64,000 nt of DNA from Candidatus Altiarchaeota archaeon (lineage in GTDB: Archaea; Altiarchaeota; Altiarchaeia; IMC4; QMZM01). The notes beneath the pieces were generated by a model. The model searched no databases, was not told the origin of the DNA, and worked only from the letters and a program-made list of their open reading frames with translations. Each line of letters begins with the position of its first letter. Position 1 is the stretch's first letter. The stretch covers positions 100,468 through 164,467 of the forward strand of contig JAWAEV010000001.1 in assembly GCA_038891095.1 (NCBI GenBank), in the 5' to 3' direction. Below, one piece after another: positions 1-18,374 of the stretch. Position numbers and translations under genes: made by a program.

Positions 1-37
1 CTGCTAAAAAAATTGGAAATTTTTCTATTATTTTCAT
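1..37 (-). CDS. 5' end of next gene of the leftward operon (partial, runs off window)
   Basis: ATG at 37-35 overlaps the TGA of the 298-aa ORF (ATGA coupling); reads MKIIEKFPIFLA with no stop to the window edge. Confidence 0.5.
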   Translation of the reverse strand, partial: MKIIEKFPIFLA

Positions 38-930
38 TCTGGTAGATAGTCTTTCAACACAGTTATTGTTCCTATAGTTATAAGTGCTAAAGTTAAACTT
101 GCTGCTATTTCGGAGATAAATTTTAACTCATAGGGAATTTTTCCAAATGTTAAAAGTAAGGCGGATATTGCAATAAGAGATATTGCCCCAACAATTTGTA
201 TAAATAAGAGTGAAAATGTAAATTCCATAAATCTCCTACCAAGAAATCTTGTTGGAATGAAAAGATATAGAAAAAGGGTTATTGGAAAAATAGCTGAGAA
301 AATTGATAATAGCAAATAACGAATAGCAAAGATAAGCAACGGTAAAAGAAGAGAGAGCATAATAAGGAATATAAAAGGAATTGAAGCAATTGATGATAGC
401 TCATTTAGTAATGAAAATTTTTCAATTAGATAATTTGCTGATGAAGTGAACATTACTAATGGATCTGCTGATGATAACATGAAAATTTCTTTTGTTAAAC
501 TTTCAGACAGTGAAAATAAAACGAATAGGATATATGATGAAAAGGGTAGAGCTATTATTGCAAAAATTAAATTTGGGATTAATGCTTTCGCAGTTGCTCT
601 CTCCCACGGAGTTCCAGAAAGAAAGATAAGATAAAACGCTGAAACTAACAATGCTAAAACACAAATTGGCTCAAGTACGTTGATCATACTTTTTACAACA
701 ACCTGGATACTTGGATGGGAGACATCTGGGTTTCGCTCTATCAGGCTCCTTAAGTTGTGCTCAAACAAAATTTTCAATGTTTTTATTGTTTCGATAAAAA
801 ATTTTTCAACAATTCCCTTTTTAATCCCCCTCTCAAGAATAAATTTTTCATAAAGAGAGCCCTCCTCCGTGATTGCAAAACAATAATTGCTAAGGAATAA
901 GATAACACAAAATGGAGCTATTCTTTTCAT
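34..930 (-). CDS. Polytopic membrane protein, VirB6/TrbL/CedA-like, with a pilin-like helical hairpin
   Basis: Signal peptide; hairpin ALLVSAFYLIFLSGTPWERATAKALIPNLIFAII; several later TM helices with the VirB6-like pattern IRYLLLSIFSAIFPITLFLYLFIPTRFLGRRFME. Confidence 0.6.
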   Translation of the reverse strand: MKRIAPFCVILFLSNYCFAITEEGSLYEKFILERGIKKGIVEKFFIETIKTLKILFEHNLRSLIERNPDVSHPSIQVVVKSMINVLEPICVLALLVSAFYLIFLSGTPWERATAKALIPNLIFAIIALPFSSYILFVLFSLSESLTKEIFMLSSADPLVMFTSSANYLIEKFSLLNELSSIASIPFIFLIMLSLLLPLLIFAIRYLLLSIFSAIFPITLFLYLFIPTRFLGRRFMEFTFSLLFIQIVGAISLIAISALLLTFGKIPYELKFISEIAASLTLALITIGTITVLKDYLPE

Positions 931-2510
931 CTTGAGATATACTTCTTTATTTTAGTTGCCGAAAAAATTAAGAGTATTGTGAATATGAAGAGTATTATGT
1001 AGTTTGAGTAATCCTTCTTGCAATCTATATCCTCATTATTTTCACAGTCAGGGTCACATTTGCCATCAGGTTGGGCATCACAATAATTATCTCTTGATCC
1101 TGAAGGACAATCTTTTGGGCAATTTAAAAAATTTTCAAATTCAATTTCACAGATAGCATTGTTATTACATAAACAATCTCTATCTAACTTTCTTTCACAG
1201 TCAGGGTCACATTTGCTATCAGATTGAGCATCACAATAATTATCTCTTTCTCCTGAGGGACAATCTTCAGGGCAATTTAAAAAATTTTCACCTTGCTCAA
1301 AGTTGCAGATATAATCAAAGTTGCAGATATCAACTATTGTAATATTCACTGAATCCGATGCTGAATTTTCAGTTGCATCAAAAACAGTTAAAGATAAAAT
1401 GTGCTTTCCTACAGGTAATTCCCTTATGTTATCAATTTTTCTTCCATCTAAATACCAATTTAGTATATACGGTTCCTTACCACCGAGAATTTTATATTCT
1501 ATTGGAATTTCTACTCCATAGCTATAAATTCTGTCTTTTAGCGGAGTAATTAAAACTCGCAGCTGAGAGTCCATCACTTCTATTTCAACTTTTTCTTCTA
1601 AAGTTTGTAAATTTGCATCAGTGACCTTAAGAGAAATTTCATGCTTTCCAACAGATAAACTTTTTGTTGAGAAATTTTTTTCATTACTAAGAAAACCATC
1701 TATGCTCGAAAACCATTCGTAGTTATAAGGCTCTTTTCCTAAGGCTGCAAACGCCCTGAAATTTATTTTCTCTCCCTTTATGTAAGTTTTAGAAACTGGT
1801 AAGAGTAAATCGATGAAAAATTTTTCTACACCATAAGATGGCTCTTCAAAGCGTTCTATCTTTTTTATTTGAATTGAAATTACATCTTTTGAAAATTCAT
1901 TGCTCTCGGGTTTATAAACTATGAAAGTTATTTCATGCCTCCCAAGAGACAGATTTTTTGCTATAAAATCCTTCTCCTTAGAGAGGGGGCCATCAATTGA
2001 TGATGTCCACTGATATTCATATTCGCTATCCTTGTGAATTCCCTCATTTCCAATCCCGGAAAAAATTATATCTTGTCCTTGATAAAAAGAGGAATTCTCC
2101 ATAGGTGATAGAATTTTTGCAGAAAGTTTGCCATATGTGAACAAAACGACTTGATTGCAGAAATAAACTTTCCCTGTATGTAAACCATGACAAATTTTTT
2201 TAAACTCTTGACTCTTGCATAAAACCCATGCTGATTCATTTATATCTAATGAAATCTGTGGGGAATTATCGCATTTTATCTCATTTCCATCAACAAAAAA
2301 TTTTACTTCGCCTTTACATCTCTCAAGGTAATTCACTATCGTAACTCCAAGTTCTGTGCAAGGTTCACCAAAATAAATCTCCTGATTTACTACTTGTGGG
2401 CTTTTACAACCTTCTGCACTACATTGAGCATTTACATTTGATGAATGAATCATTGCTAATGTTATTGCTATAGTGACTAAAAAAATTTTGGCAGCAAACC
2501 TTTCATTCAT
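927..2510 (-). CDS. Membrane-anchored partner protein 1: PKD/Ig-like repeats + Cys/Asp-rich stalk + C-terminal TM
   Basis: Signal peptide; repeats such as YQWTSSIDGPLS..LSLGRHEITF; two ENFLNCPxDCPSGxRDNYCD..CDPDC units; TM plus basic tail. Confidence 0.85.
   Translation of the reverse strand: MNERFAAKIFLVTIAITLAMIHSSNVNAQCSAEGCKSPQVVNQEIYFGEPCTELGVTIVNYLERCKGEVKFFVDGNEIKCDNSPQISLDINESAWVLCKSQEFKKICHGLHTGKVYFCNQVVLFTYGKLSAKILSPMENSSFYQGQDIIFSGIGNEGIHKDSEYEYQWTSSIDGPLSKEKDFIAKNLSLGRHEITFIVYKPESNEFSKDVISIQIKKIERFEEPSYGVEKFFIDLLLPVSKTYIKGEKINFRAFAALGKEPYNYEWFSSIDGFLSNEKNFSTKSLSVGKHEISLKVTDANLQTLEEKVEIEVMDSQLRVLITPLKDRIYSYGVEIPIEYKILGGKEPYILNWYLDGRKIDNIRELPVGKHILSLTVFDATENSASDSVNITIVDICNFDYICNFEQGENFLNCPEDCPSGERDNYCDAQSDSKCDPDCERKLDRDCLCNNNAICEIEFENFLNCPKDCPSGSRDNYCDAQPDGKCDPDCENNEDIDCKKDYSNYIILFIFTILLIFSATKIKKYISR
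1008..1278 (-). repeat. 271-bp inverted repeat, copy A (pairs with 11331-11601)
   Basis: Manual reverse-complement alignment shows 2 mismatches, both synonymous. Confidence 0.9.
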
Positions 2511-5500
2511 TTTCTTTTGTCTCCACTTCTTTTTTTATTTCTTCAAATTTAAGTCGTCCTCCTTTGAACCATCTATAGAATAAAGCCATTGCTATTAGAA
2601 CTATCAAAAGTAATAGAAATTCTGGTGACAAAAACCACCAAATTCTCTTGAATGAAATTACATCCAAGTAGTCAGAAGTCTCAGTCTCTGTGAATTTCTC
2701 ATCCCCTAAGAATATGAACTTAACTTTTGTGCTTTCTTCACCAAGTTTAAATAAAAATGTCGCTCTTCCTTCACCATCTGTTCTTATATCTTGAGAGATG
2801 CCATAACCTTCAACCTTTACTGTAATTTTTCTGTTAGGGATTCCACTATTTGTGAGGGGGTTTATAAGTCTTATATTAATTTTAACATCTGTCCCTGGAT
2901 TTAGGTTATATCTACCTGGCCCAACACTTTCAACTATAATTTTTGATGGCTCTCTTAGGGTTACATTAATGCTAAATTCTTTATTTTCTGGTGGAGTAAC
3001 CTCTTTTCTTGGTGGAAATAATTTATAAGTTTGTGTCAATGTGTCATTTCTAAAATGTATGAAAATTGTCAAGCTAGCTTCTTTAAAATCTTCATTGCTA
3101 ATAAATTCGGGAAATTGAATTGTTGTGAAGTTTAGAATATAAATGCCAGTACTTCCAGCTTCTTCTGTTCCAGGAAGGGTTGACATTCCCGCTGATGAAT
3201 AGAATGAAGACATAAATACTTTTTGTGCCTCAGATGCTGCACCTTCTATATGTATAGTATAATAGAAAACTCTTCCATTACCATATTTGAAAGTTACTGC
3301 CATTGGCTTGTCATACTGTCCAGAGGAGTAAGAACCTCTTGCTAAAACTTTAGTTTCTGGATTGTTAATGCTGTCAATCACCACTGTTCCCTGAAGGAGC
3401 TCCCATCCAGATATGCTTTCATAGGGTGTTTGGAAGAATTCTCTTAGATCTTGAGATAAGTCATAAGTCCCTCTGACTGAACCTTCCCAAATTTCCGCAG
3501 TTCCGCTTCCAGATTTTGATCCAGTAAAATATCCTGGAAAAATTCCTTGTAGGTGATCATAATCCCAATCAGTTCCAATATAAGTTCCGCAATTTTCAAC
3601 AAATTTCCTTATCTCTTCAGCAGATGCTCCTGTTGGTCCAGAAGGACAACCAAAAATTATAACATCTGCATCTGTAAGGCACTCCTTACTCCATTGCTTG
3701 AATGGAATCTTCATTTCATTGAAAATATGTGAAGGCTGATCATAACTGCCATCTTGAATGCAAATTTTCAATGGTAAAATTAGCCTTACTAATGCACTTC
3801 CTGATGAACCTGCAGTGTAGTAATCTACATTTTTGAAATCTTCATTTTTTGCAATTACTTTCTCAACAATTTCCTTTGCATTTCCTGCTGATGAAACAAC
3901 AACATATGGGCCTGCATTATATTTAACTCCTAAAAATTCAATTGGGCCTATAATTCTACCAACTTTAAATTTTGTGTTTATATTGCACGATGATGGTTCT
4001 TGTGAGCATTTAGAAAGAGCCCATACAAGCCCATGAACTTTTAAAGGCTCATTCTGCTTATCACAAGCATTTGCATCTGCGGGATCAGTTGGAATTATAA
4101 CATCATTTGAAGAAATTTGCCAATTTTCTGGTTTTATCTCATTGCAAGTTTTTGGCTTTGTGACATTTATCTTTGTTATTATATGCTCAACTTCTCCTGC
4201 TAAACTTCCGCCTGTTTGAGAAATTGTTTTTTCAGGAGGATATCTCTGATCTATTATCTTTAAATCACTCCTTTCTTTTGTGTAAAGGTCAACAAAGTCA
4301 TAATAGTAAAATTCCTCATCATGGTATGTTTTCAGTGAATATAATGGCCTCAAATAGCTTTGGTCTGTTTCTTTGCAAATACAATCTTTTCTTTTGTAAT
4401 AAACAGGTGGTTTTTCTGAGTAATCAACACATGTAACATCAGTTAAATCATAACTTGGGCAGAAGCAATTTGGAGGACAAATCTCTTTTCCTTGTGCTAA
4501 ATAAGGAAATTCAAAACCTACCGCTGTTGGTATTTGTGATTCATAACCATAAGCATCTTCCATTTTATAAGTCAAATGTGCAGGTAAATTTCCATATGCA
4601 GGATCAGGATTTATTGGTGTGTATGGAAGTGCAGGCATATAAATTCCATGGTGAATATCTTTCCTATAAAGCTCATGTTTTATTGGATACGCTAAAGAAG
4701 AATATTCAAGTTTTGAATTTTTTACATTAAGAATAAATTTACTTATAATATCTGGTGAGACATCTATTCTAAGAGTTCCCTTATGTGTGATAAATTTCTC
4801 ATCACCATAACTATCAACGCCACCTGTTATTGAAATATTTATATCACGGAGGATATTTTTATGTATAACTGGTGGGCCTTTACCAATGCAATTTAAACTT
4901 GACCTCCATGCCATACTACCTGAAATATCATTAACAAGAACTACTGCTGCAGGTAACTCACTTTTAACAATTGATGCTAACTCATTGTAAATGCATTCCC
5001 ATGGACAATCACAACTTACAGCATAGAATTTTCCATTTCCAAGATTTGCTAATTCCTCCATAAAAGAAAGAACAGCATCATCGCCAATTGCAACAGTGTG
5101 CACTGTTATACCTTCAGAGGCAGCTGCTCGAACTGCCTCTCTTGCAGCTTCTTGTGCAGTGGAGGGAGTTGGAACATTCGGAATTCCATCAGAGAAGAGG
5201 ATTATATGCTTTTTACCTTCAGCACCAGATAAAAGTTCGGTTCCTTTTTGTATACCGCAAGCTATACAAGTTGCAGCCATTGGCCTGTAAGAATTTATCT
5301 CGTTATATAGCTGCTCTTTATCAGTTGTTAATGGGAGCGAAGAGATAACTGAAGTGCTAAAGCTGACTAAACCAACTGGAACATCTGGTACAACTTTATC
5401 AACAAATCCCTTAGTTGCTTCCTTAAGAGCATCTATTTTTCTTTTATCAAGATCAATTGCTGTGCCTATGGCATCATTGACATATTCCTCTGTTTGTATT

Positions 5501-7518
5501 ACTATTGGTCCAGCATAGCAACAACCACAGCAACATCCCGGACAAGTAGGATCACATGCCCATGTATGGTCAATAAGAGATGTTTCAAAATGTTCTTTAA
5601 TACTTATTGGTAGATCATCAGCGCTCTCTTTTAAATCATACTTAAATGTTATATCCTGTGCTATGACAAATTGGGCTCTGTTGCTTGAAGGATAATAAAC
5701 CTGAGTTAAAGTGTAAACTCCTGATGCAGGGTCCTTTGTGAAGATAGCAGTAGTTATTCTGAAAGGTATATTACCAGTTGAGATAACAGTTAGAGCACCA
5801 TTACTTACTGTAACCTTTGTAGGGGAATTTTGAGTTATTCTCACTCCCGAAGTTCTTATTTCTATGTCAGGTATTATAATTTTTATTACATTTGTTACTC
5901 CAGAATTGAAATAAGCAGATAATCTACATGGGAAATATGGACATTGAGAGCAATAGCAATTACAGAAGGGTGCACACATTCTATCGCATTCCCACCAACA
6001 TGCTGGCTCTCTTCTAAAACCACCACCAGCATATAATACATTTTTTCCTGTTCTTCCCCATTGCATGTTATTTCTTTCATCATTTAAATAAGGAGTATTA
6101 GTGAAAATTTTCACCCATACTTCTCTGAACAATTTTGAATCAAAATTATGTGTGCAATAAGCCTCTGGAACTTTCAAAACACTTTTAATTGTTGATCTAT
6201 CAGGCATTTCTTGGACTTCCTGCATTTCATTCCATTCATGCTGCTTTTCTAAATATTCATCATCTGCAGTTTCAAAATTTCTTGATGTTTTTTCTTCCTT
6301 GTCTTTCACTCCAAAGGAATACCATGGGTAGTTTACTACAGAACTTGGAAGGGATGTTCTTTGCTTACACCATGCAGTATCTTTTAGAGGTGTTCTATAG
6401 CAGAAAAGGTAGTCACTATAGGGCCGCCCCCATAAATTAAGATATTTTTCATAAATACACTCTGTATAATCATAGACCTGTTCACAGCTAGGACAGCATC
6501 CCCAAGGAAACACATTACAAGGACATAATCCTGAAGAAACACAATCAAATGTACATTCCAAAGATTCAGGCTGCTTATGATAACATTCATCAAGCAATAA
6601 TTTGTTTACAGCATCGGAATAAGCTCTTGCATCAACTATAACATATTCCTTTTTTTCTTTTTCAAAAGATATGTCCTCTTCAGCAAGAAAATACATGTCC
6701 TTTTTGTTATTATCAACCTTTTCAATTAACCAGTACCAAAGTATTTTATCATTATAGATGAAATCTATTGGATTATAAAGCTGAGCATCAACAACTCCAA
6801 AAATGCTTTCAGTTTCGCTTTTTTTTGCATAGCATAAAACAAAGGGCTTTTCAATTCCTTGAAATATATTTTCTGGAAAATTTAATTTGCTATAAATTTC
6901 AGCACTTGAATGTGGATAAGTAACAACCCTGTACTCAGAGAAACTTCCTTTAATTTTTTCACAGTTACTTAAATTTATTTCAATGTCCTTACAATATGGG
7001 CAACATTCTAAAGGATAGCCATCAAAGCCATCAACTTCCTTATGAAGTTTTTTTGTTTTTATTTTTGTTGCAATTACAACATCTTGTGAAGAATCATAAA
7101 GTTTTATCTCCTCACATTCAGAAACTGTTCTTATTGTGAGATTTATGCAAACCTTTTCAGAATTTTTTCCAGAGGCGTCAGTTGCAAATGCGCAAAACGT
7201 ATATTCACCAGCAGATGAAAATTTTTTTATAAAGCATGGTGGTTCTTTACAGCAAGTTAATGATGTGCAAGTTCTTGAGCTATAGCAACTGCATTCTTCA
7301 ATATTACCGGAGTTATCTTCAAGGAAAATTTTCTCTAAGCCAATATCATCAGTTGCTTCAATAATAAAGATAACTTCGCTATTAACAAAAGCAGGATTTG
7401 GCTGAGCTGTGAATGAAACAATTTTTGGAGGCTCATCTGCTGACACATTAGCTAAATTTCCAATTGATGTGAGAAGTGAAATTAAAAGTATATAAAGGAC
7501 TTTTTCTTGCTTATTCAT
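2503..7518 (-). CDS. Giant surface protein: Ig-like, Cys-rich, permuted vWA, GATase-like fold, Ig-like, C-terminal TM
   Basis: Signal peptide; vWA elements VGLVSFS, IILFSDG, VHTVAIG and VVLVNDISGSM; ADVIIFGC..IRKFVENCG..YGNGRVFY; TM FLLLLIVLIAMALFY. Confidence 0.85.
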   Translation of the reverse strand: MNKQEKVLYILLISLLTSIGNLANVSADEPPKIVSFTAQPNPAFVNSEVIFIIEATDDIGLEKIFLEDNSGNIEECSCYSSRTCTSLTCCKEPPCFIKKFSSAGEYTFCAFATDASGKNSEKVCINLTIRTVSECEEIKLYDSSQDVVIATKIKTKKLHKEVDGFDGYPLECCPYCKDIEINLSNCEKIKGSFSEYRVVTYPHSSAEIYSKLNFPENIFQGIEKPFVLCYAKKSETESIFGVVDAQLYNPIDFIYNDKILWYWLIEKVDNNKKDMYFLAEEDISFEKEKKEYVIVDARAYSDAVNKLLLDECYHKQPESLECTFDCVSSGLCPCNVFPWGCCPSCEQVYDYTECIYEKYLNLWGRPYSDYLFCYRTPLKDTAWCKQRTSLPSSVVNYPWYSFGVKDKEEKTSRNFETADDEYLEKQHEWNEMQEVQEMPDRSTIKSVLKVPEAYCTHNFDSKLFREVWVKIFTNTPYLNDERNNMQWGRTGKNVLYAGGGFRREPACWWECDRMCAPFCNCYCSQCPYFPCRLSAYFNSGVTNVIKIIIPDIEIRTSGVRITQNSPTKVTVSNGALTVISTGNIPFRITTAIFTKDPASGVYTLTQVYYPSSNRAQFVIAQDITFKYDLKESADDLPISIKEHFETSLIDHTWACDPTCPGCCCGCCYAGPIVIQTEEYVNDAIGTAIDLDKRKIDALKEATKGFVDKVVPDVPVGLVSFSTSVISSLPLTTDKEQLYNEINSYRPMAATCIACGIQKGTELLSGAEGKKHIILFSDGIPNVPTPSTAQEAAREAVRAAASEGITVHTVAIGDDAVLSFMEELANLGNGKFYAVSCDCPWECIYNELASIVKSELPAAVVLVNDISGSMAWRSSLNCIGKGPPVIHKNILRDINISITGGVDSYGDEKFITHKGTLRIDVSPDIISKFILNVKNSKLEYSSLAYPIKHELYRKDIHHGIYMPALPYTPINPDPAYGNLPAHLTYKMEDAYGYESQIPTAVGFEFPYLAQGKEICPPNCFCPSYDLTDVTCVDYSEKPPVYYKRKDCICKETDQSYLRPLYSLKTYHDEEFYYYDFVDLYTKERSDLKIIDQRYPPEKTISQTGGSLAGEVEHIITKINVTKPKTCNEIKPENWQISSNDVIIPTDPADANACDKQNEPLKVHGLVWALSKCSQEPSSCNINTKFKVGRIIGPIEFLGVKYNAGPYVVVSSAGNAKEIVEKVIAKNEDFKNVDYYTAGSSGSALVRLILPLKICIQDGSYDQPSHIFNEMKIPFKQWSKECLTDADVIIFGCPSGPTGASAEEIRKFVENCGTYIGTDWDYDHLQGIFPGYFTGSKSGSGTAEIWEGSVRGTYDLSQDLREFFQTPYESISGWELLQGTVVIDSINNPETKVLARGSYSSGQYDKPMAVTFKYGNGRVFYYTIHIEGAASEAQKVFMSSFYSSAGMSTLPGTEEAGSTGIYILNFTTIQFPEFISNEDFKEASLTIFIHFRNDTLTQTYKLFPPRKEVTPPENKEFSINVTLREPSKIIVESVGPGRYNLNPGTDVKINIRLINPLTNSGIPNRKITVKVEGYGISQDIRTDGEGRATFLFKLGEESTKVKFIFLGDEKFTETETSDYLDVISFKRIWWFLSPEFLLLLIVLIAMALFYRWFKGGRLKFEEIKKEVETKENE

Positions 7519-7595
7519 TTTTTGTTATCTGCTATAATTATTTATTCAATCATAAAGTATTTAAACTTTACTTGAAATAATTAATTTAATGCAAA

Positions 7596-7880
7596 ATGCC
7601 AAAAGAAGGTGACACTGCTGTAATGTATTGCAGCAAATGCAAGGTTTCAACGCCACATACATACAAGAGTTCATTTGTTGGAGATCTCTCAAAGAAAATT
7701 TTAGGAAAAAATCTTAAGGATATTGGCTCTGGATGGTATTGCAATAATTGTGGTAAGAAAAGTGCTCCAGATGATCTATCAGATAACATTGAAGATTTTA
7801 ATATTGAGGATATTTCAGATGACTCAACAAGTCATGAAGACTATGCTAACTCCGAAGGAGAATATTATGATGAATATTAA
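7596..7880 (+). CDS. Small Zn-ribbon protein with acidic tail
   Basis: CSKC...CNNC pairs; D/E-rich C-terminus; first gene of the rightward operon. Confidence 0.7.
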   Translation: MPKEGDTAVMYCSKCKVSTPHTYKSSFVGDLSKKILGKNLKDIGSGWYCNNCGKKSAPDDLSDNIEDFNIEDISDDSTSHEDYANSEGEYYDEY

Positions 7881-7888
7881 TACTTAAA

Positions 7889-10453: not shown

Positions 10454-10455
10454 AA

Positions 10456-11685
10456 ATGGAAATGAAAAATAAAATTTTAAAAATTTATATTTGGATTGGA
10501 ATTTTGATTTTATTTATAAATTTTGTTAATGCATTTGATGGACATGAATTGATATTAGAGATAAAGAAAAGTGCACCTAAGGAAATTTCAGCTGAAGAAA
10601 TTTTGCAGGTGAAAATTGAAGTGATCAATTTTTATAATGATTCAGTGGCTGTAAAGTTAATAGAGAATGTAGATTTTGCTGAACCAATAGATAAAGAAAA
10701 TTTAGTTAAAAGACAGAATATAACTGAAACTAAGGATGAGGTTATCATTAATGAAATACGCTGGTTTAAACCTGATGGAATTTGCAATGTTGGTTGTAAA
10801 AGCAATGATAAAATTTGTGATCCTGATTGTAAATGTACTGCCATGCAAGATTCTGATTGCGCTGCCTTTATAGTTTCAATTCCGCCAAGATATGAATGGT
10901 CATTTACTTTGAAGCCTAATGAAAAAAAAGAAGTTTCATATAGAGTTAAACCATATAAAATTGGTTATATAAAAATTCCAAAAACAGTTGCTGAAACAAA
11001 CATTAAAGGAACTATAACAAGATTTTATTCAAATGAATTAATTGTTAGAGTAAAATGCAAAATTGATGGCATCTGCAGCAAAGATGAAAACTTTGGAAAT
11101 TGTCCTGAAGATTGTCCCTCAGGAGAAAGAGATAATTATTGTGATGAAATAAAAGATAGCATATGTGATCCTGATTGCCCAAGATATGCTGACCCTGATT
11201 GCATAACAGCTATATGTGGTGATGGTAAATGTGAGAAAGATAAAGAGGAAAACTATGAAAATTGTCCTGAAGATTGTAAAAAGCCAATAGTATGTGGCGA
11301 TAGAATTTGTGAATTAGCTGAGAATTTTGCAAATTGCCCTGAAGATTGTCCCTCAGGAGAAAGAGATAATTATTGTGATGCTCAATCTGATAGCAAATGT
11401 GACCCTGACTGTGAAAGAAAGTTAGATAGAGATTGTTTATGCAATAACAATGCTATCTGTGAAATTGAATTTGAAAATTTTTTAAATTGCCCAAAAGATT
11501 GTCCTTCAGGATCAAGAGATAATTATTGTGATGCCCAACCTGATGGCAAATGTGACCCTGACTGTGAAAATAATGAGGATATAGATTGCAAAAAGGATTA
11601 CAGCATAATTCTTATATTAATTTTTGTTGTCTTTATGATTTTAGCTTATTTATATTACAAAAAAAGAAAAGGTGAAATGCAATGA
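10456..11685 (+). CDS. Membrane-anchored partner protein 2: DUF11-like Ig domain + Cys/Asp stalk + TM
   Basis: Likely start MEMKNK just after the upstream stop (ORF track gives 10429); IKKSAP..VKIEV..LKPNEKKEVSYRV; several CPEDC/CDPDC units; TM + KKRK. Confidence 0.85.
   Translation: MEMKNKILKIYIWIGILILFINFVNAFDGHELILEIKKSAPKEISAEEILQVKIEVINFYNDSVAVKLIENVDFAEPIDKENLVKRQNITETKDEVIINEIRWFKPDGICNVGCKSNDKICDPDCKCTAMQDSDCAAFIVSIPPRYEWSFTLKPNEKKEVSYRVKPYKIGYIKIPKTVAETNIKGTITRFYSNELIVRVKCKIDGICSKDENFGNCPEDCPSGERDNYCDEIKDSICDPDCPRYADPDCITAICGDGKCEKDKEENYENCPEDCKKPIVCGDRICELAENFANCPEDCPSGERDNYCDAQSDSKCDPDCERKLDRDCLCNNNAICEIEFENFLNCPKDCPSGSRDNYCDAQPDGKCDPDCENNEDIDCKKDYSIILILIFVVFMILAYLYYKKRKGEMQ
11331..11601 (+). 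repeat. 271-bp inverted repeat, copy B
   Basis: Encodes NCPEDCPSGERDNYCD...DIDCKKDY, identical in protein to the 927..2510 copy. Confidence 0.9.
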
Positions 11686-13553
11686 TATCAAAAAGGAAAT
11701 TTTTCATTATTTCAATTTTATTTACATTACTTTTTACATTAAATGCCAATGCTCAATCAAGGGCAGAACTTGGAAATTTAGTTTTAAAGTTAATATGCCT
11801 TCTTTTCTATATAATTCCTGCAGTAATGGCTTTACTAATTTCTATTGGAGCAGTTTTTATTATCACTGGGGATGAAACAAAAAGAAATAAAGGAAAGAAA
11901 TTAATTTTGAATTCATTCATTGCATCTTTTATTTTAATTTTTTTAGCTTGGCTCGTGACATTAACCTCGCCGCAACTAAAATTTTCAGATTATGCTCTTT
12001 GCTTTAGTGAGAATGGAACTTTACAGTATCCAACAACAAGTACAATTTCTGGGATGTTAGCACCTTGGGCAGATGCAAGAGTTGGAATTACAACATCACC
12101 ACCACCAGAAGAAAAAGAAGTCTACACAGGGAAAAATGCTCCTGTATATTTTGATGGCTCAAATTCAAAGGATTTTGATGGGAGCATAGTTGATTATGAA
12201 TGGAATTTTGGAGATAGCTCAGCAATTGAGAAAGGGGTAAAAGTTTCGCATTCATATTCGGCTGACGGAACTTACACCGCAGAATTAAAAGTTACTGATA
12301 ACAGTGGTTTATCAGATACTGATATTGTTAAAATTTACATTCTACCTTTAGAGGCGCATATCTTAAAACCAAAAAATGGCCAAATTTTTATCTATCCTAA
12401 TGATGAAATAAAATTTGAAGGTGAAGCTAAATATGGAGCTCCATGTATGGCTCCAAATGAACCATATAAGTATAATTGGCAATCAAATTTGAAAGGTTTT
12501 CTCAGTAATGAAAAATCCTTTGTTTTAAAAGCAAGTGATTTAGGTTTAGGGATGCACTCCATAAGTTTAACAGTAACTGATTGTGCTGGAAATACAGCAG
12601 AGGATAGTATAACAATTATAATAAATATGCCGCTTTTTGTAGAAATTTTAAATCCAAAAAATGATAATGAAAAATTTGATTGCGATGAAAAATTTAAGGG
12701 CAATGTTTCAGGAGGCACTCCACCATATAAAGTCACATGGAAAGCAAACGGAAAAATTTTCAGTACAGGCACAATAAATGTTGATGGTGGTACTCATGAA
12801 ACTGAAAAAAGACCATCACCACCAGGAAAATATGACATAACTTTTGAAGCTGTTGATAAATATGGCTCAAAAGCTGATGATATGAAAAAAGAGATAGAGG
12901 TCATTCCTTGTAGTCCTTGTGATGTATACAAAGCGACAGGAGTTCTACCAAATAAATTTGACTGGAGGAATTATAATGGGAAAGATTATAATAGTCCGGT
13001 TAAAAATCAAGGTCGTTGCGGAAGCTGCTGGGCACACTCTGTAATCGGTGCAATGGAAGGAACATATAATGTTGAGCAAGATAACCCTGATTTAGATCCA
13101 AATCTCGCAGAACAATGCTTAGTGGGCTGTTGTAAATGTGCCTATGGGTGTGCAGGATGTCCCTTTGCTGGTTGGCCAAGTTGTCCATTGAATTACTTAA
13201 AGAGTCCTGGAACATCTACCGAGAGCCAATGTGCATACACAGCAAGTAATTCACCATGTTGTAGTAGCTGCAGTTCTAACACTTGGAAGATAAAAAATTG
13301 GGGCAGTGTTCCAAGTGATAGCAAAAAAATAAAAGAAGCATTGATATGCAATGGTCCACTCGCAGTTGCATCTTTTGCTTGGAGACATGCAATTGTGCTT
13401 TCTGGTTATGATGACACTCAAGGAGTTTGGATAATAAAGAATAGTTGGGGCACAGGTTGGGGTCAAGGTGGTTATGGTAGGATTCCGTATAATGGAGCTT
13501 ATGGTGATATAGTAGCGCATGCTGCATATGTTGATGGAGTAACTCCGCCTTAA
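11682..13553 (+). CDS. TrbC/VirB2 pilin-like hairpin fused to PKD domains and a papain-family (C1A) cysteine peptidase
   Basis: IIPAVMALLISIGAVFIITGDETKRNKGKKLILNSFIA; PNKFDWR..VKNQGRCGSCWA (Gln, Cys), HAIVLSGY (His), WIIKNSWG (Asn). Confidence 0.9.
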   Translation: MISKRKFFIISILFTLLFTLNANAQSRAELGNLVLKLICLLFYIIPAVMALLISIGAVFIITGDETKRNKGKKLILNSFIASFILIFLAWLVTLTSPQLKFSDYALCFSENGTLQYPTTSTISGMLAPWADARVGITTSPPPEEKEVYTGKNAPVYFDGSNSKDFDGSIVDYEWNFGDSSAIEKGVKVSHSYSADGTYTAELKVTDNSGLSDTDIVKIYILPLEAHILKPKNGQIFIYPNDEIKFEGEAKYGAPCMAPNEPYKYNWQSNLKGFLSNEKSFVLKASDLGLGMHSISLTVTDCAGNTAEDSITIIINMPLFVEILNPKNDNEKFDCDEKFKGNVSGGTPPYKVTWKANGKIFSTGTINVDGGTHETEKRPSPPGKYDITFEAVDKYGSKADDMKKEIEVIPCSPCDVYKATGVLPNKFDWRNYNGKDYNSPVKNQGRCGSCWAHSVIGAMEGTYNVEQDNPDLDPNLAEQCLVGCCKCAYGCAGCPFAGWPSCPLNYLKSPGTSTESQCAYTASNSPCCSSCSSNTWKIKNWGSVPSDSKKIKEALICNGPLAVASFAWRHAIVLSGYDDTQGVWIIKNSWGTGWGQGGYGRIPYNGAYGDIVAHAAYVDGVTPP

Positions 13554-14574: not shown

Positions 14575-16182
14575 ATGAGAAAATGGATTGTGCACTTCAA
14601 GAAATTTCTATTTTTTACTTTTATCTCACTAATATTTCTTTATTTTGCAATTTTTACAAACGCTATAATAGATTGTAAATTTTATGGATGCGCAGAAAAT
14701 GAAAGGTGCATGGCTGATGGATTTTGCACTCCCCTCTCAGTTAAGGAATACTGCGAAAGTAAAGGTTTTCCATATAATGATGTAATTCTTACAGTAAATT
14801 GTAGCAAAGAACTTCCAAAAGAAAGAGAATTTCTATGTAAACAATGTAAAGGCGATTATGAATATTTAAAAAGAGTTAATAGCATAATTGATATAATTTT
14901 CAATGTTGCTGCTGGTATTGCAGTACTTTTACTTGTTGTGAATGGCTTTAGGTTTTTAGCATCAGAGGATACTTTTGCAAGAGAAAATTCAAAGAAGGCA
15001 ATTTTATATGTTCTTCTTGGTTTAGTGATATTAATTTTATCAAGAGCAATTATAAGCTCTTTACTATTACCGCCACTCTCTTTACCAAGAGAAACTACAA
15101 CTACTACTACTCAACAAGTAACTACAACATTGCCTCCGGTCTCAATGTGTATTGGCCTTCTTACATGCACGGATTGCTTAGCAAATAATTGCAAATGGTG
15201 TCATAATCCACAACTTGCCCCATCAATATGCATAGAAAATTGTAATGATTGCGATGCAATTCTTGGAACTTGTCTTCAATACACATGTGAAGTAACAACT
15301 ACAACATCGACAACAATAACTTTCATGACTACTATAACAGGAGCGACAACTACAACAACATCAACAACAATAAATGTACCTTGCGATTCTTTAGCACCGC
15401 CTAACTGTAATGGTATTTGTCCTTCAGGAGAAACATGCATAGCAGAGGGTAGCACTTGTAAATGTACTGTATTCACAACCACCACAACAACTACCACAAC
15501 CACTACAACTACAACAATAAGAGCAAAATTAACCGTTATGTTTGTGCCAGTAAATTGGATAGGATCACTTTCAACATTTGATTCTGCTGTGCAAACACAA
15601 GCAAATGAAATTCTAAAGAATATCCCATTAAAGGATTGTCCAAGTTCATTTGTTGTAAAGAAAGCAACATCAAATTGTAATATTGGATATATGAGCTGTA
15701 TGTGCCATGAATTAAGTAGAATATCTTCATGTGCTCAGGCAACTGGCGAAACATATGATTATGTTGTTGGTTTGCATAATGGTGATGTCTGTGGAAATGT
15801 CTTAGGGTTTTCTTGTTATGTTGGCACAGTCTTTTCTGAGACAAGTGTTACCTTAGTTGCAGTTCATGAACTTGGGCATGAATGGGGCTTAAATGATGAA
15901 TATTGTAGCCAACTTTGTCCAGGATGTCCTGCTGGGCCACCAAATGCATTAAGCAAGACAGAATTTTGTGACCCACAACCGGGAGGAGATTGCTGTGGTG
16001 CCTGTATTGGTTATAATCCACATTGCTATGGCAATGTTCAAAAAGATTGCATAGATAGTTCAGGAAACAAAATTTGTAATGGCAGAGCAATAATGAGTTA
16101 TGGCTCTGCTCCTGGTCCAAGAGGTCAAGATAGACCATCATGGAATCACTTGCTTACAATACCAAAGCTGAGATGTGGTTGA
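14575..16182 (+). CDS. Cys-rich domain + VirB2 pilin-like hairpin + Thr-rich linker + Zn metallopeptidase
   Basis: VAAGIAVLLLVVNGFRFLASEDTFARENSKKAILYVLLG; HELGHEWGLNDEY and Met-turn-like AIMSY. Confidence 0.85.
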   Translation: MRKWIVHFKKFLFFTFISLIFLYFAIFTNAIIDCKFYGCAENERCMADGFCTPLSVKEYCESKGFPYNDVILTVNCSKELPKEREFLCKQCKGDYEYLKRVNSIIDIIFNVAAGIAVLLLVVNGFRFLASEDTFARENSKKAILYVLLGLVILILSRAIISSLLLPPLSLPRETTTTTTQQVTTTLPPVSMCIGLLTCTDCLANNCKWCHNPQLAPSICIENCNDCDAILGTCLQYTCEVTTTTSTTITFMTTITGATTTTTSTTINVPCDSLAPPNCNGICPSGETCIAEGSTCKCTVFTTTTTTTTTTTTTTIRAKLTVMFVPVNWIGSLSTFDSAVQTQANEILKNIPLKDCPSSFVVKKATSNCNIGYMSCMCHELSRISSCAQATGETYDYVVGLHNGDVCGNVLGFSCYVGTVFSETSVTLVAVHELGHEWGLNDEYCSQLCPGCPAGPPNALSKTEFCDPQPGGDCCGACIGYNPHCYGNVQKDCIDSSGNKICNGRAIMSYGSAPGPRGQDRPSWNHLLTIPKLRCG

Positions 16183-16252: not shown

Positions 16253-17116
16253 ATGAAAATTTCAATTTTAGCAGGTTTTTTTATTTCAATTTTTTTGATT
16301 TCTTTAGTTTATGGTGAAAAAGTTCTAAACATTGACCTTGAAGTTTTTAAAGACGATTCTGTAAAAGTAAATAAAATAATTCTAATGGAAGGAAATCCAA
16401 CTGTTTACATTTCTCCTGGAGAGTATAAACTAAGGATACTTGACTATGAAAACAATGTAATAGAGGAAATTCCAATAAATCTTGTTTTTATGGTAATGAC
16501 AGATCCTCCAAAGCCAACAGATTCTGCATTCATAAATTTAAGATTGCCTTATAAGCAGGAAATGCAAACTCTGAAATTATTTAATAAGGATATGGAAATT
16601 TTTTCTACAAAAATTCAACTCTGCAATAATGATAATGTATGTGATATAAATTATGAAAATTTTCTTAGTTGTCCTGAAGATTGTCCATTAGATAAAAAAG
16701 ATGGAATTTGCATAAAAGAAGCTGATAAAATTTGCGACCCTGATTGTGCAGAAGGTGTTGATCCTGATTGCAAAGCAGTGCCAACAACAATTGAGATTAC
16801 TCGCATAGAAACTACTAAAATAACTACTGTTATGACAACTACAACAACAATTCAAGATAAAAAGACGGACTTTTTTATCTATCTCCCTCTATTTATTATT
16901 ATTGTATTAATTTTATCTTTTGTTGTGATTATATACATGAGGAGAAAAATTAAAAAGAAGGAGAAAGGATTTGATAATAGCAAAGTAGTATCATGGGTAA
17001 GAGAAAAATTATCCAAAGGAGAAAATCCAGAAATTTTAAAGAAAGGTTTAGAAGCAGAAGGATATAGCCCTGAAATAGTAGATAAAATTCTTAGCGAAGA
17101 TGAAAATTTTAAATAA
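16253..17116 (+). CDS. Membrane-anchored partner protein 4: beta-rich domain + one Cys/Asp unit + TM + cytoplasmic helical domain
   Basis: Signal peptide; ENFLSCPEDCPLDKKDGIC..CDPDC; Thr-rich linker; TM; tail WVREKLSKGENPEILKKGLEAEGYS. Confidence 0.8.
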   Translation: MKISILAGFFISIFLISLVYGEKVLNIDLEVFKDDSVKVNKIILMEGNPTVYISPGEYKLRILDYENNVIEEIPINLVFMVMTDPPKPTDSAFINLRLPYKQEMQTLKLFNKDMEIFSTKIQLCNNDNVCDINYENFLSCPEDCPLDKKDGICIKEADKICDPDCAEGVDPDCKAVPTTIEITRIETTKITTVMTTTTTIQDKKTDFFIYLPLFIIIVLILSFVVIIYMRRKIKKKEKGFDNSKVVSWVREKLSKGENPEILKKGLEAEGYSPEIVDKILSEDENFK

Positions 17117-17579
17117 ATTTATGGCTTTATTAGGAATTTTCTTTATTTTGAATTTTTCTACAGGATATGATTGCAAGCTTGAGGGATGCCCACCAGATTA
17201 TAGATGTATGGCAAATGGAGAATGCACACCACTAAAAGTGAAAGAGTATTGTGAAGATCATGGAAAACCACCTTACATTTACAATGATGCTCTCCTCTTG
17301 AGAAATTGTAGCGATATCTTGAATGAGAACGAGCAAAAGCTTTGCATGCAATGTAAAGGAGATTATGAATTAAGGAAAAATGTTAGCGACATTGAAAATA
17401 TTGTATATGGTATAACTGCTGGAATTGCAATTCTATTTCTTGTTGTTAATGCCATAAGATTAATTACTTCATATGATCCTGAAAGTAGGGAAAATTCAAA
17501 GAAAGCAATCATTTATGTTATAATAGCAGTTATAATAATTGCAATTGCAACGAAATTTATTGAATATCTTCTAATGTGA
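17100..17579 (+). CDS. Cys-rich domain + VirB2 pilin-like hairpin (cargo-less paralog of the 14575 N-terminus)
   Basis: DCKLEGC..RCMANGECTPLKVKEYC vs DCKFYGC..RCMADGFCTPLSVKEYC; shared RENSKKAI. Confidence 0.8.
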   Translation: MKILNKFMALLGIFFILNFSTGYDCKLEGCPPDYRCMANGECTPLKVKEYCEDHGKPPYIYNDALLLRNCSDILNENEQKLCMQCKGDYELRKNVSDIENIVYGITAGIAILFLVVNAIRLITSYDPESRENSKKAIIYVIIAVIIIAIATKFIEYLLM

Positions 17580-17582
17580 AAA

Positions 17583-18374
17583 GTGGCATTTGTTGATGTA
17601 GTTTCAGATATAAATACTGTGCTCTATGGAATAGCAGCAGGTATAGCAATATTGATGATAACTTTCTATGGAATTAAATGGAAAATTTCAGAAAGTTCTC
17701 AAGATAGAGAAGAGGCTAAGAGAGGAATTTTGAATGTTATTTTTGGTTTGGCAATTATAATAATTGCTGGAAATTTAGTTGGCTTGATTCTAGGTCCTAC
17801 ACCACCAGGAGGAACAACAACCACAACTTTGCCAGGAGGGACAACAACTCGTCTAACTACAACACGAATCACAACAACAATGCCAGGATGGACAACAACT
17901 TCTGCTGAAACAACCACAACAGCTTATGTAACAACATCAACAACGCTCATTGAATGCTATCAGGCATGTATAGATAATGGCTATCTATATGGAACATGCA
18001 AAGCATTTTGCAATACTGATGATGAAGTGCAATTAGATGTAGTTTATGTAAATTGTCCATTAGGCACATTATGTTGTTGTAAGAAAGCTATAACAACAAG
18101 CACTACAACAACGAGCATAACAACAAGTACAACTTCAACAACAAAAACTACTACTACAACTACAAGCACTTCAACCACAACTACTGTCGCATGTGCAATT
18201 GGTGAGTGTAGCAAAAAACCAGATCAAGTATGTAGACTTGCAGAAGCAGCAGGATGGTGCTACTCATTTGATGATCCTACTGGAAGAGTAAAGGGATTAG
18301 ACGAGCAATGCGGTCCAGGGATGAGACAATGTTGCTGTGATAATTATGCCAAATGCTGTGGACCACCACCATAA
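17583..18374 (+). CDS. VirB2 pilin-like hairpin + Thr-rich linkers + small Cys-rich domains
   Basis: GTG start; IAAGIAILMITFYGIKWKISESSQDREEAKRGILNVIFGLAIII. Confidence 0.75.
   Translation: MAFVDVVSDINTVLYGIAAGIAILMITFYGIKWKISESSQDREEAKRGILNVIFGLAIIIIAGNLVGLILGPTPPGGTTTTTLPGGTTTRLTTTRITTTMPGWTTTSAETTTTAYVTTSTTLIECYQACIDNGYLYGTCKAFCNTDDEVQLDVVYVNCPLGTLCCCKKAITTSTTTTSITTSTTSTTKTTTTTTSTSTTTTVACAIGECSKKPDQVCRLAEAAGWCYSFDDPTGRVKGLDEQCGPGMRQCCCDNYAKCCGPPP

Follow-up and report, generated by a model that had tools for sequence, protein, structure and literature searches.

We found that a locus in an Altiarchaeota-type archaeon with a 0.96 Mb genome encodes homologs of type IV secretion system (T4SS) pilins fused to proteases, together with a probable VirB6/CedA-like membrane protein. 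The locus (Table 1) lies within a 64,000-nt stretch of DNA (the window). Homology of its products to T4SS parts is well supported, and its gene content suggests a surface apparatus that presents enzymes and adhesins. We think there is about an even chance that the locus is a copy of a conserved cassette that serves as an accessory to a chromosomal, non-conjugative, T4SS-derived apparatus displaying proteases and adhesins. Such cassettes are present in a single order of Altiarchaeota-type archaea with small genomes; the archaeal origin guessed in a preliminary description of this DNA was correct.

Hairpin proteins in the T4SS pilin family

The preliminary description had recognized a two-helix hairpin in four ORFs. 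All four score above the cut-off (26.6 bits) of the Pfam family PF18895 (T4SS_pilin), with per-protein E-values from 2.8e-6 to 1.7e-12, and the match is therefore not due to chance. In addition, these hairpins align column by column with the small VirB4-adjacent pilins of related genomes. Based on these matches and this alignment, homology of the four hairpins to T4SS pilins is well supported. A signal-peptide-like segment and two transmembrane (TM) helices were found in three of the four ORFs, with 3-5 Lys/Arg per loop, a predicted topology that fits outward display of cargo.

VirB2-like pilin domains occur in about 12 ORFs of the genome. In several, a PKD or Thr-rich stalk links the pilin domain to a protease (papain C1, M64 zincin) or a Cys-rich domain. 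ORF 17583 is in frame with the gene that precedes it, and the junction consists of a TGA stop and one codon. A solitary cargo-free pilin gene lies beyond the cassette coordinates, with metabolic genes as neighbors.

Table 1. Features of the locus, and the solitary pilin gene elsewhere in the window.
Position	Strand	Feature	Support
34..930	-	Probable VirB6/CedA-like polytopic membrane protein, 298 aa; embedded pilin-like hairpin at about aa 78-139	Family alignment A1; AF2 model
927..2510	-	Surface protein, 527 aa; signal peptide, Ig/PKD-like repeats, two Cys-rich 51-aa modules, C-terminal TM anchor	
1008..1293	.	Inverted-repeat arm, 286 nt, 98% identical to 11316-11601	
2503..7518	-	Giant surface protein, 1671 aa; vWA domain, signal peptide, C-terminal TM anchor	PF00092, 50.3 bits; hydropathy
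7519..7595	.	AT-rich spacer between divergent operons	Sequence read
7596..7880	+	94-aa ORF of uncertain status; CxxC...CxxC (zinc-ribbon-like), acidic tail; 8 nt upstream of first plus-strand gene	
7889..10453	+	Secreted protein, 854 aa; signal peptide, PKD domain, Cys-rich C-terminal domain with transglutaminase-like C/H/D motif, no membrane anchor	PKD_4, 50.4 bits
10429..11685	+	Partner protein, 418 aa; signal peptide, three Cys-rich modules, C-terminal TM anchor	
11682..13553	+	Pilin-PKD-Ig-papain fusion, 623 aa; signal peptide, VirB2-like hairpin aa 35-92, PKD/Ig repeats, C1 peptidase	PF18895, 27.8 bits
13582..14547	+	DUF333 partner protein, 321 aa; signal peptide, DUF333, three Cys-rich modules, C-terminal TM anchor	PF03891, 75 bits
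14575..16182	+	Pilin-zincin fusion, 535 aa; signal peptide, Cys-rich N-domain, hairpin aa 102-160, Thr-rich linkers, M64-like HExxH...DEY domain	PF18895, 31.9 bits
16253..17116	+	Partner protein, 287 aa; one Cys-rich module, TM anchor	
17100..17579	+	Pilin, 159 aa; Cys-rich N-terminal domain, hairpin aa 97-157	PF18895, 47.7 bits; AF2 pLDDT 81
17583..18374	+	Pilin, 263 aa, without signal peptide; hairpin aa 5-69, then Thr-rich and Cys-rich tail	PF18895, 37.7 bits
61115..61570	-	Solitary cargo-free pilin, 151 aa	PF18895, 42.6 bits; TrbC/VirB2 PF04956, 30.1 bits (cut-off 27.9)

Organization and cargo of the cassette

The genes form two divergent operons, as previously proposed. The minus-strand genes (giant vWA, Cys-module and VirB6-like) overlap by 4 and 8 nt, and the plus-strand genes from 7889 to 18374 (transglutaminase-like and pilin-protease) overlap or are 3-70 nt apart. 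The minus-strand operon extends to the left beyond the window, across a 10-N scaffold gap, with four further VirB6-like genes. The spacer between the operons is presumed to contain their promoters. The short ORF that follows the spacer had no match in a Pfam search. The inverted repeat encodes Cys-rich modules that are common to both operons.

Two intact-looking peptidases had been reported in the locus. The papain C1 domain of ORF 11682 (108 bits) is intact and has Gln442, Cys449, His569 and Asn587. The zincin of ORF 14575 is M64-like by motif (HELGHEWGLNDEY is present) but falls below the M64 threshold (21 vs 26 bits); a paralog on contig C3 combines a pilin domain with Peptidase_M64 at 63.5 bits. 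Each plus-strand pilin-protease gene is paired with a gene for a membrane-anchored partner. ORF 10429, whose start codon (TTG) is uncertain, is directly upstream of the pilin-papain gene, and its homologs are immediately 5' of pilin-fusion genes in five loci (L046, L047, L063, L065 and L066). A homolog of the DUF333 partner adjoins a papain-domain gene in 6 of 11 loci examined (L048, L049, L050, L051, L053 and L056).

The vWA protein that had been noted in the locus was confirmed by its Pfam match. Its homologs are 42-47% identical and occupy the same position in four of five related loci, and homologs of ORF 927..2510 are placed after it in relatives. Homologs of ORF 7889 are likewise syntenic in four of five related loci. 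The transglutaminase triad attributed to ORF 7889 is present as motifs (GTCCDY, GHCYN and IIDTTG at aa 750, 780 and 796), but the domain itself matched no Pfam transglutaminase family and no PDB sequence, and its Atlas scores were all below 0.9 (Peptidase_C71, DUF553 and Transglut_core). A relative of a syntenic homolog reaches Transglut_core (24.5 bits; cut-off 23). We treat the assignment as a lead.

A probable VirB6/CedA-like family

ORF 34..930 and nine paralogs in the genome form two tandem arrays of five. The ORF had been described as VirB6-like, and this is probably right for the ORF and its paralogs, based on fold, sequence signals that are weak, and position beside VirB4 in relatives. 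The AF2 model has eight helices (pLDDT 78.9), and TrwI/VirB6 chains were its best natural-protein matches in Foldseek (probability 0.97-0.99), with weak E-values (0.035-0.07). TrwI was also the sole PDB sequence match (E 1.3). Comparison of the family with a seven-sequence VirB6 alignment by hhalign gave a weak match (probability 10-12%, E 0.002-0.003), and the TrbL profile PF04610 had no match in the genome. Members of the family are located in VirB4 loci of relatives. Two members are enlarged: one of 497 aa has a vWA-like N-terminus and one of 772 aa has a long C-terminal tail.

The looser hairpin previously seen in ORF 34..930 held up at the level of profiles: family alignment A1 matched pilin alignment A3 (hhalign E 2.2e-5, probability 76.5%, 61 columns), and PF18895 matched 34 of 82 family members. 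It did not hold up in searches with the single ORF, which matched no family in Pfam or NCBIfam and was not found by our custom hairpin HMM at E≤1.

The VirB4 core and conservation in relatives

The genome does contain a VirB4-type ATPase, on contig C2 and not in the cassette locus, together with a partner PrgI/VirB3 and a small VirB2-like pilin (PrgI, 32.8 bits; P-loop_TraG, 98 bits). This VirB4 and one from Saccharibacteria have 30% identity (E 3e-94). Among 36 VirB4 loci, a PrgI-like gene was beside VirB4 in 31, small pilins were found in 24, and a VirB6-like gene of at least 300 aa in 12, one of which is from Saccharibacteria.

The preliminary description had suggested a check of synteny in related genomes. 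The divergent layout recurs in four loci (L063, L065, L066 and L067) from three genomes of two other genera. Wherever contigs were long enough, VirB6-like genes were in the cassette (L063, the C5 locus and the window). Cargo on the same pilin-PKD chassis varies: Peptidase_C1 (L048), C25 (L046), Transglut_core (L047) or M64 (contig C3 of the window genome), and the pilin-papain architecture of ORF 11682 was also found in relatives. All 33 of the order's other genomes had PF18895 (3-24 matches per genome at E≤1e-5); none of eight genomes from two other families of the class did.

Proposed display of proteases and alternative explanations

We favor the display of cargo because of the pilin identity of the hairpins, their signature residues and topology, the VirB6-like genes, the VirB4 core, synteny, the swapping of cargo, and the lineage-wide occurrence of PF18895. 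Counted against it are the location of VirB4 on another contig, the lack of a TrbL match, the weak VirB6 alignment, and the lack of a match to solved pilins. The Sec route would insert the fusion proteins in the membrane with the basic loop cytoplasmic and the cargo outside. VirB6-like platforms powered by VirB4 would then recognize the hairpin and extract it from the membrane, as with ordinary pilins. The hairpins would join cargo-free pilins, as the minor subunits, in a short pilus or a structure that spans the envelope, and would thereby hold proteases and adhesive domains off the cell. Attachment could be through the giant vWA protein, and the C-terminally anchored Cys-module or DUF333 partner beside each protease may be its dock or a self-protecting inhibitor. 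A likely use would be attaching to and digesting the surface of neighboring or host cells. Domains of 400-500 aa would be hard to pack in a pilin homopolymer, and incorporation that is sparse or confined to the tip is the most that seems plausible. Our literature searches found no paper describing a pilin-protease fusion cassette.

It is possible, although we are doubtful, that the pilin-derived hairpin is a mere two-helix anchor; that is, T4SS-descended proteins would tether proteases, adhesins and Cys-rich domains with no need for a filament or VirB4. The locus itself lacks the ATPase, the proteins are very large for pilins (263-623 aa), and some ORFs in relatives have two or three hairpins in a single protein and resemble polytopic membrane proteins more than pilins. 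In addition, structural and PDB sequence searches gave no significant match to solved pilins: the pilin profile recovered no solved conjugative pilin from the PDB (top match, Pf3 coat protein, E 0.031), and Foldseek with the ORF 17100 model found nothing below E 1. In contrast, a simple TM segment at the C-terminus anchors other products of these operons, and the hairpin is therefore not the default anchor here. The fusions have also kept the polar loop signature of VirB4-adjacent pilins. We compared 58 non-redundant hairpins, of which ORFs of <200 aa supplied 32 and those of ≥300 aa supplied 20. All were picked by one HMM, which inflates common features in small and large ORFs alike; the loop Arg was kept in 94% vs 95%, the Lys in 75% of each, and the two Gly in 81% vs 85% and 94% vs 75%. 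The constant presence of VirB6-like genes in the cassette, where visible, also argues against simple anchoring.

We consider it unlikely that the core is a Ced/Ted-like machine for import of DNA or nucleotides (or for conjugation) and that the surface genes are neighbors that reuse a pilin-like segment. The parts list of the genome (VirB4, VirB6-like and VirB2-like) does match Ced/Ted, and CedA's N-terminal part is pilin-like, as in the VirB6-like family here (excerpts of PMC9905601). However, the pilin domain is covalently fused to enzymes, which goes beyond adjacency, and synteny of the divergent cassette, VirB6-like genes included, extends across genera. Moreover, no relaxase was found in the genome with PF03432 or PF08751, and there was no convincing coupling protein, as coupling-protein models matched only Walker-A stretches of other ATPases. 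The core may import DNA in addition to a role in display.

We regard it as very improbable that the locus belongs to a mobile element (integrated conjugative or otherwise) or reflects a mis-assembled metagenome bin: the scaffold gap is immediately left of the window and the inverted repeat is inside the locus, but the VirB4 core is among housekeeping genes (FeoB, DtxR, DRG-type GTPase, dCMP deaminase, aIF5A and PriL), no relaxase was found, GC content (0.32-0.36) is like that of the rest of the window, the cassette layout recurs in three other genomes, and the pilin family is in all 33 other genomes of the order.

Comparison with known systems

Archaeal Ced and Ted DNA-import systems are also minimal sets of VirB4 (CedB/TedB), a VirB6-like protein (CedA/TedA) and a VirB2-like pilin (CedA1/TedC), and the signal peptide of TedC is cleaved (Beltran et al. 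2023, PMC9905601, in excerpt). CedA shows homology to the pilin at its N-terminus, as does the VirB6-like family here. Ced and Ted differ in having single copies and small cargo-free pilins, and in being from Thermoproteota. Contact with Ced was limited to a structural match, not significant, between the hairpin and the CedA1 pilus (Foldseek rank 24, E 3.4, rmsd 2.8 Å over 70 columns).

T4SSs with arrays of VirB2-like pilins have been described in Patescibacteria (CPR) (Quinonero-Coronel et al. 2025, PMC12102498; review, PMC12857230). Based on excerpts of these sources, they have in common with this archaeon a chromosomal VirB4, PrgI/VirB3, VirB6, arrays of divergent PF18895 pilins, and ultra-small hosts, usually without a relaxase. 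The Saccharibacteria locus L043 also has the gene order VirB6-like, PrgI-like, VirB4, pilin. In contrast, the host here is archaeal, there are ten VirB6-like genes in two arrays, and many pilin domains are fused to proteases or large extracellular domains. The same excerpts describe arrays of 2-11 small pilins and do not mention such fusions (PMC12102498, PMC12857230). In the two Saccharibacteria genomes that we searched, the pilin-bearing frames were 115-349 aa.

The Rickettsiales vir homolog (rvh) systems differ from the system here in belonging to diderm bacteria and in having a full VirB set; their VirB2 genes have proliferated too. We know of no pilin-enzyme fusions in them. They have tandem VirB6 paralogs and "extended VirB6" proteins (PMC2653234; review, PMC12857230). 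The two are alike in the proliferation of VirB6 in host-dependent reduced genomes and in having some VirB6-like proteins with large extra hydrophilic domains (here, the enlarged proteins described above).

In type IV pili, minor pilins and tip adhesins, such as the vWA-bearing proteins of the TadG/CpaL type, use a low-copy polymerizing pilin module to carry a large adhesive or enzymatic domain into the filament. The functional logic is the same as that proposed here, but the pilin fold of type IV pili (class III signal peptide, single N-terminal helix) and their assembly machine are unrelated; the hairpins here are of the VirB2 type.

Pilin-domain proteins in a divergent locus

We found that the first 18.4 kb of the window is made up of two divergent, densely packed strings of genes (Table). 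The preliminary description read four of the ORFs as VirB2-like pilin hairpins, that is, two-helix pilin domains, and all four indeed scored above the curated cut-off (26.6 bits) of PF18895, the T4SS_pilin family. Each also had a sub-threshold match to an NCBIfam pilin-like conjugal transfer family. Matches to PF04956 (TrbC) were sub-threshold in three of the four (16.3, 23.4 and 24.9 bits vs 27.9), with none listed for ORF 11682; PF04956 was above cut-off only in a solitary pilin (30.1 bits). When aligned, the four hairpins matched column by column the small pilins that flank VirB4 in relatives.

Table. Positions of the features discussed (nucleotides of the window unless a contig or locus is named).
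Feature	Position	Strand	Remarks
VirB6-like ORF	34..930	minus	overlaps 927..2510 by 4 nt
Middle minus-strand gene	927..2510	minus	overlaps 2503..7518 by 8 nt
vWA protein	2503..7518	minus	1671 aa
Zinc-ribbon-like ORF	7596..7880		94 aa; 8 nt ahead of first plus-strand gene; two CxxC pairs, strongly acidic tail
Plus-strand string of eight genes	7889-18374	plus	overlapping or 3-70 nt between neighbours
Candidate transglutaminase-like ORF	7889 (start)	plus
Gene with second repeat copy	10429..11685	plus
Pilin-papain ORF	11682..13553	plus	623 aa; PF18895 27.8 bits
Pilin-zincin ORF	14575..16182	plus	535 aa; PF18895 31.9 bits
Pilin ORF	17100..17579	plus	159 aa; PF18895 47.7 bits
Pilin ORF	17583..18374	plus	263 aa; PF18895 37.7 bits
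Inverted repeat	1008-1293 and 11316-11601		286 nt, 98% identical
Stop/start junction of two pilin ORFs	17577-17585	plus
Four convergent genes	18380..27096	minus	206, 154, 762 and 1782 aa
Solitary pilin	61115..61570
Scaffold gap	C1:100458-100467		run of 10 N
First five VirB6-like paralogs	window leftwards	one strand	298, 244+, 497 (vWA-like N-terminus), 350 and 772 aa
Other five VirB6-like paralogs	contig C5		directly downstream of 1315-aa surface protein
497-aa VirB6-like paralog	L001 13644..15137
VirB4	L002 8548..10887 (contig C2)		779 aa

A hydropathy scan indicated an N-terminal hydrophobic segment (a putative signal peptide) and two transmembrane segments in ORFs 11682, 14575 and 17100, and two helices only, with no N-terminal hydrophobic segment, in ORF 17583. 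The loops of the four hairpins contain three to five Lys/Arg. T4SS pilins are known as small subunits that carry no cargo. The proteins of this locus are not hairpin-only: the three longest have large extracellular domains, and the 159-aa protein adds a Cys-rich N-domain of ~70 aa. Because of these large extra domains, we regard the four ORFs as encoding pilin-domain proteins, not classical pilins.

Enzyme and surface domains

ORF 11682 has the order hairpin, PKD/Ig repeats, papain C1 domain (PF00112, 108 bits). The catalytic set is complete (Gln442, Cys449, His569 and Asn587), so the peptidase described earlier as intact-looking and fused to a hairpin appears as described. The domain aligned to ficin (E 2.3e-24) with CGSCWA, HAIV and NSWG in place, and no I29 propeptide was detected with Pfam. 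ORF 14575 has Thr-rich linkers and then a domain with HELGHEWGLNDEY. An HExxH...DEY motif is present, the M64 score is sub-threshold (21 bits vs 26), and PDB entry 3p1v was matched at E 0.049. A paralog on contig C3 combines the pilin domain with an M64 domain at 63.5 bits.

The vWA domain of the adhesin claimed for the locus was recovered, at 50 bits in the 1671-aa protein. As for the claimed transglutaminase-triad protein, ORF 7889 has the C/H/D motifs, but no Pfam transglutaminase matched it, its C-terminal domain had no PDB sequence match, and its Atlas similarities (Peptidase_C71, DUF553 and Transglut_core clusters) were all below 0.9. We treat a transglutaminase-like function as a lead suggested by the motifs.

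In the 1671-aa protein, a DxSxS metal-site motif is located on the C-terminal side of the Pfam vWA match and not at its start (DISGS at aa 864; aa 692-870). The 497-aa VirB6-like paralog has DTSNS likewise C-terminal to its vWA match. This placement of the motifs suggests that both vWA domains are circularly permuted.

Is the hairpin more than an anchor?

The main alternative is that the hairpin is today merely a membrane anchor. We compared 58 non-redundant hairpins from the collected loci, 32 of them in ORFs of <200 aa, 20 in ORFs of >=300 aa and 6 between. The polar signature was equally retained in the small-ORF and large-ORF groups: the loop Arg was kept in 94% and 95%, the Lys in 75% of both, the first Gly in 81% and 85%, and the second Gly in 94% and 75%, with the features in common inflated by the choice of all 58 hairpins with one HMM. 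In addition, other proteins of the same operons carry an ordinary C-terminal TM anchor. The equal signature and the plain anchors on operon neighbors together argue for a retained pilin-type interaction and against a mere anchor.

On the other side, the hairpin had no close match to solved pilins. No conjugative pilin was among the PDB sequences matched by the pilin profile (A3, the hairpin alignment), and the top match was the Pf3 coat protein (E 0.031). Foldseek with a model of ORF 17100 gave nothing below E 1, with the Aeropyrum pernix CedA1 pilus at rank 24 (E 3.4, rmsd 2.8 Å over 70 columns). We consider these structural and PDB sequence searches uninformative. A homologous-protein search with the hairpin region of ORF 11682 recovered that protein alone.

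Conservation of the cassette

PF18895 was found in 40/41 genomes sampled as relatives (2-30 matches each, E<=0.001), many of the frames being 500-1169 aa. At E<=1e-5 and among genomes at least 80% complete, the order had it in 33/33 genomes besides the window's own (3-24 matches each), and it was found in none of 8 genomes from two other families of the class.

A chassis of pilin and PKD domains carries varied cargo in relatives: Peptidase_C1 in L048 (573 aa), Peptidase_C25 in L046 (811 aa) and Transglut_core in L047 (775 aa). Loci L049-L051, from a third genus, have a small pilin, a pilin-papain protein of 520-526 aa and a DUF333 protein side by side. The pairing of cargo and partner genes proposed earlier proved real. 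A DUF333/Cys-module protein adjoins a papain-domain gene in 6/11 loci examined. The pilin fusions of L046, L047, L063, L065 and L066 are immediately preceded by a gene for a homolog of the 418-aa partner.

The whole divergent layout is present in L063. In one direction are a giant vWA protein, a 527-aa homolog and a VirB6-like protein; in the other are a homolog of ORF 7889, a partner, a pilin fusion and a second partner. The layout is partial in L065, L066 and L067, and these four loci come from three genomes of two other genera. The window's own genome has a second cassette on contig C5. The divergent operons of L063 are only 47 bp apart, leaving no room for a counterpart of the zinc-ribbon-like ORF, which in the window had no Pfam match.

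A VirB4 core elsewhere in the genome

The contig that holds the window is 382 kb long, and its genome (958,546 bp, 93.65% complete) has archaeal markers, e.g., aIF5A and the primase large subunit. The genome encodes a VirB4-type ATPase on contig C2 that matched P-loop_TraG (98 bits), AAA_10 (59 bits) and, weakly, CagE_TrbE_VirB. The genes just upstream of it encode a PrgI/VirB3-family protein (32.8 bits vs 27) and a 136-aa pilin. The neighbors of this core are FeoB, DtxR, a DRG-type GTPase, a GT4 transferase, dCMP deaminase and aIF5A. The pilin genes of the window are linked to VirB6-like genes in a divergent operon, VirB4 is on a separate contig, and the VirB6-like arrays of this genome are not adjacent to it.

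The closest relatives of this VirB4 are 59-88% identical and nearly all in Altiarchaeota/Altiarchaeales records; Saccharibacteria come next at ~30% (30% over 578 aa, E 3e-94), and identity to TrwK of R388 is 24% over 319 aa. Using the VirB4 protein as query, we collected 36 related loci. A PrgI-like gene lies beside VirB4 in 31 of them, and in 24 VirB4 is flanked by small pilins that belong to the family of the window's hairpins.

No relaxase match (PF03432, PF08751) was found in the genome, an absence that is unproven at this completeness. The profiles for a VirD4-type coupling protein (PF02534, PF10412) matched only P-loop (Walker-A) stretches of ~40-80 residues in other ATPases. Readings of the locus as a mobile element or as a mis-assembly were rejected on gene context and synteny.

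Residues ~610-779 of the C2 VirB4 form an extra C-terminal stretch of ~170 aa, with no domain assignment, that is lacking in the aligned Saccharibacteria VirB4. A contig with a VirB4 88% identical to that of this archaeon is filed in a Spirochaetia bin, and two CPR-like ones (33%) are in Pseudomonadales bins (L034, L039, L040), probably because the publicly recorded bins contain errors. Many of the cargo-free pilins beside VirB4 in A3 (L025, L026, L030, L032, L041, L021 and L027) have a Cys just past the predicted signal-peptide cleavage site, and many of the same pilins finish in a single Cys directly after helix 2. Such a pair could form a head-to-tail disulfide.

The VirB6-like family

ORF 34..930 was first described as VirB6-like. 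Based on matches to TrwI (the VirB6 of R388), fold, a pilin-like hairpin and gene context, we think it probable that its family is VirB6/CedA-like. The protein had no Pfam or NCBIfam match, and a profile search found PF04610 (TrbL/VirB6) nowhere in the genome. Among nine VirB4-adjacent family members of relatives, two had sub-threshold PF04610 matches (21.5 and 16.3 bits vs 25.9). ORF 34..930 is polytopic, with six hydrophobic segments by hydropathy and eight helices in an AF2 model (pLDDT 78.9). A homologous-protein search gave just seven close relatives, none with a Pfam family; the family as a whole has 2,218 representatives at E<=0.001.

The best natural-protein matches of the AF2 model in Foldseek were TrwI chains (probability 0.97-0.99, E 0.035-0.07, TM 0.31-0.41). 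With a first family alignment (A1), TrwI was the sole match among PDB sequences (E 1.3), and hhalign of A1 against TrwI alone gave a probability of 1.7%. With a deeper alignment (A2) the TrwI match was gone and only a designed coiled coil was matched (E 0.85), which counts against the assignment. Compared by hhalign to a VirB6 alignment of seven sequences, the family gave E 0.002-0.003 but a probability of 10-12%, always through the same conserved helix pair.

A pilin-like hairpin is also embedded in proteins of this family. When A1 was compared with A3 by hhalign, E was 2.2e-5 and the probability 76.5%, and PF18895 matched 34/82 members. Beltran et al., writing on Ced/Ted, describe an N-terminal region homologous to the cognate pilin for CedA/CedA1 and VirB6/VirB2 (PMC9905601), so that the family here and CedA/VirB6 are alike in having a pilin-like region within the platform protein. 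When a complex of ORF 34..930 (A1) with residues 85-159 of ORF 17100, its hairpin (A3), was predicted, the score was 0.00, which counts neither way.

Ten paralogs of the family are present in the genome, in two sets of five (Table). Members of at least 300 aa occur in 12/36 VirB4 loci, with five in tandem in L009 and one of the 12 loci being from Saccharibacteria; the remaining loci are in many cases short contigs. Because of the scaffold gap at the left edge of the window, the beginning of the second VirB6-like gene is not visible, and contiguity of the window with its left flank depends on scaffolding.

Proposed mechanism and a possible catalytic pilus

We entertain, as a possibility that is rather unlikely on present evidence, that small-genome Altiarchaeota build a "catalytic pilus": a T4SS-derived filament whose VirB2-type subunits covalently bear proteases from at least four families (C1, C25, M64 and transglutaminase-like) and which is put together on interchangeable VirB6-like platforms. 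Each divergent cassette would be a swappable module fitted to a given neighbor or host envelope, and would combine an adhesin and a platform array with proteases and the membrane-bound partner or immunity proteins cognate to them. More probable than this wider picture, and in our view the likeliest mechanism, is the following. The fusion proteins would be inserted by Sec, and their hairpins would be recognized and extracted by the VirB6-like platforms and VirB4. The fusions would then co-assemble sparsely with cargo-free pilins, PKD or Thr-rich stalks holding the proteases and adhesive domains off the cell. The giant vWA protein would serve in attachment, and the partners would be docks or self-protecting inhibitors.

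VirB2-type pilins have both termini on the outside of the pilus. The topology of the fusions is compatible with outward-facing cargo, and their linkage to VirB6-like genes is conserved. Domains of 400-500 aa are implausible to pack on every subunit, and we therefore propose only minor or tip incorporation.

The nearest known system is the Patescibacteria T4SS with VirB2 arrays (PMC12102498, PMC12857230), and the next nearest is Ced/Ted (PMC9905601). According to PMC12857230, the same pilin family is essential in ultra-small bacteria for life on the host, its role being unexplained. The literature we covered described no T4SS in Altiarchaeota and no pilin-enzyme fusions, a coverage that leaves aside any supplementary lists of long pilin-domain proteins. 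A third comparison, after Ced/Ted, is the proliferation of VirB6 in Rickettsiales.

In this locus, in archaea beyond the Ced/Ted lineages, proteases and adhesive domains are mounted on the pilin module as a chassis, and conserved gene order ties that module to multiplied VirB6-like platforms. If the fusions enter a filament, they would give a reason why such organisms multiply pilin and VirB6 genes, concrete and testable host-interaction effectors for uncultured archaea, and a natural design for enzyme display on a conjugative-type pilus. Otherwise, the locus is a clear case of a pilin domain reused as a specialized surface anchor. A catalytic pilus, if true, would put conjugation machinery to a new use, namely as the scaffold on which enzymes serve for attack or feeding upon contact, and would be an archaeal counterpart of the essential, unexplained Patescibacteria system.

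Other features of the locus

The inverted repeat lies within coding parts of 927..2510 and 10429..11685, on opposite strands. It codes for two Cys-rich modules of ~51 aa each, and the plus-strand operon has seven occurrences of this module, at 66-80% identity. The repeat looks like recent gene conversion between the divergent operons.

ORF 17100 stops at TGA, and the GTG start of ORF 17583 follows one codon later, in frame. Read-through, or a recent nonsense change, would join two pilin hairpins in one protein. Two-hairpin proteins occur elsewhere: there is a 651-aa protein on contig C8, and relatives have multi-hairpin frames.

The four convergent genes next to the plus-strand string encode Cys-rich, Thr-linker-rich secreted proteins almost without Pfam matches and are probably part of the same surface-protein island. 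Three of the four proteins have a dockerin/EF-hand-like motif (D-x-N-x-D-x-x-I-D...W) in common.
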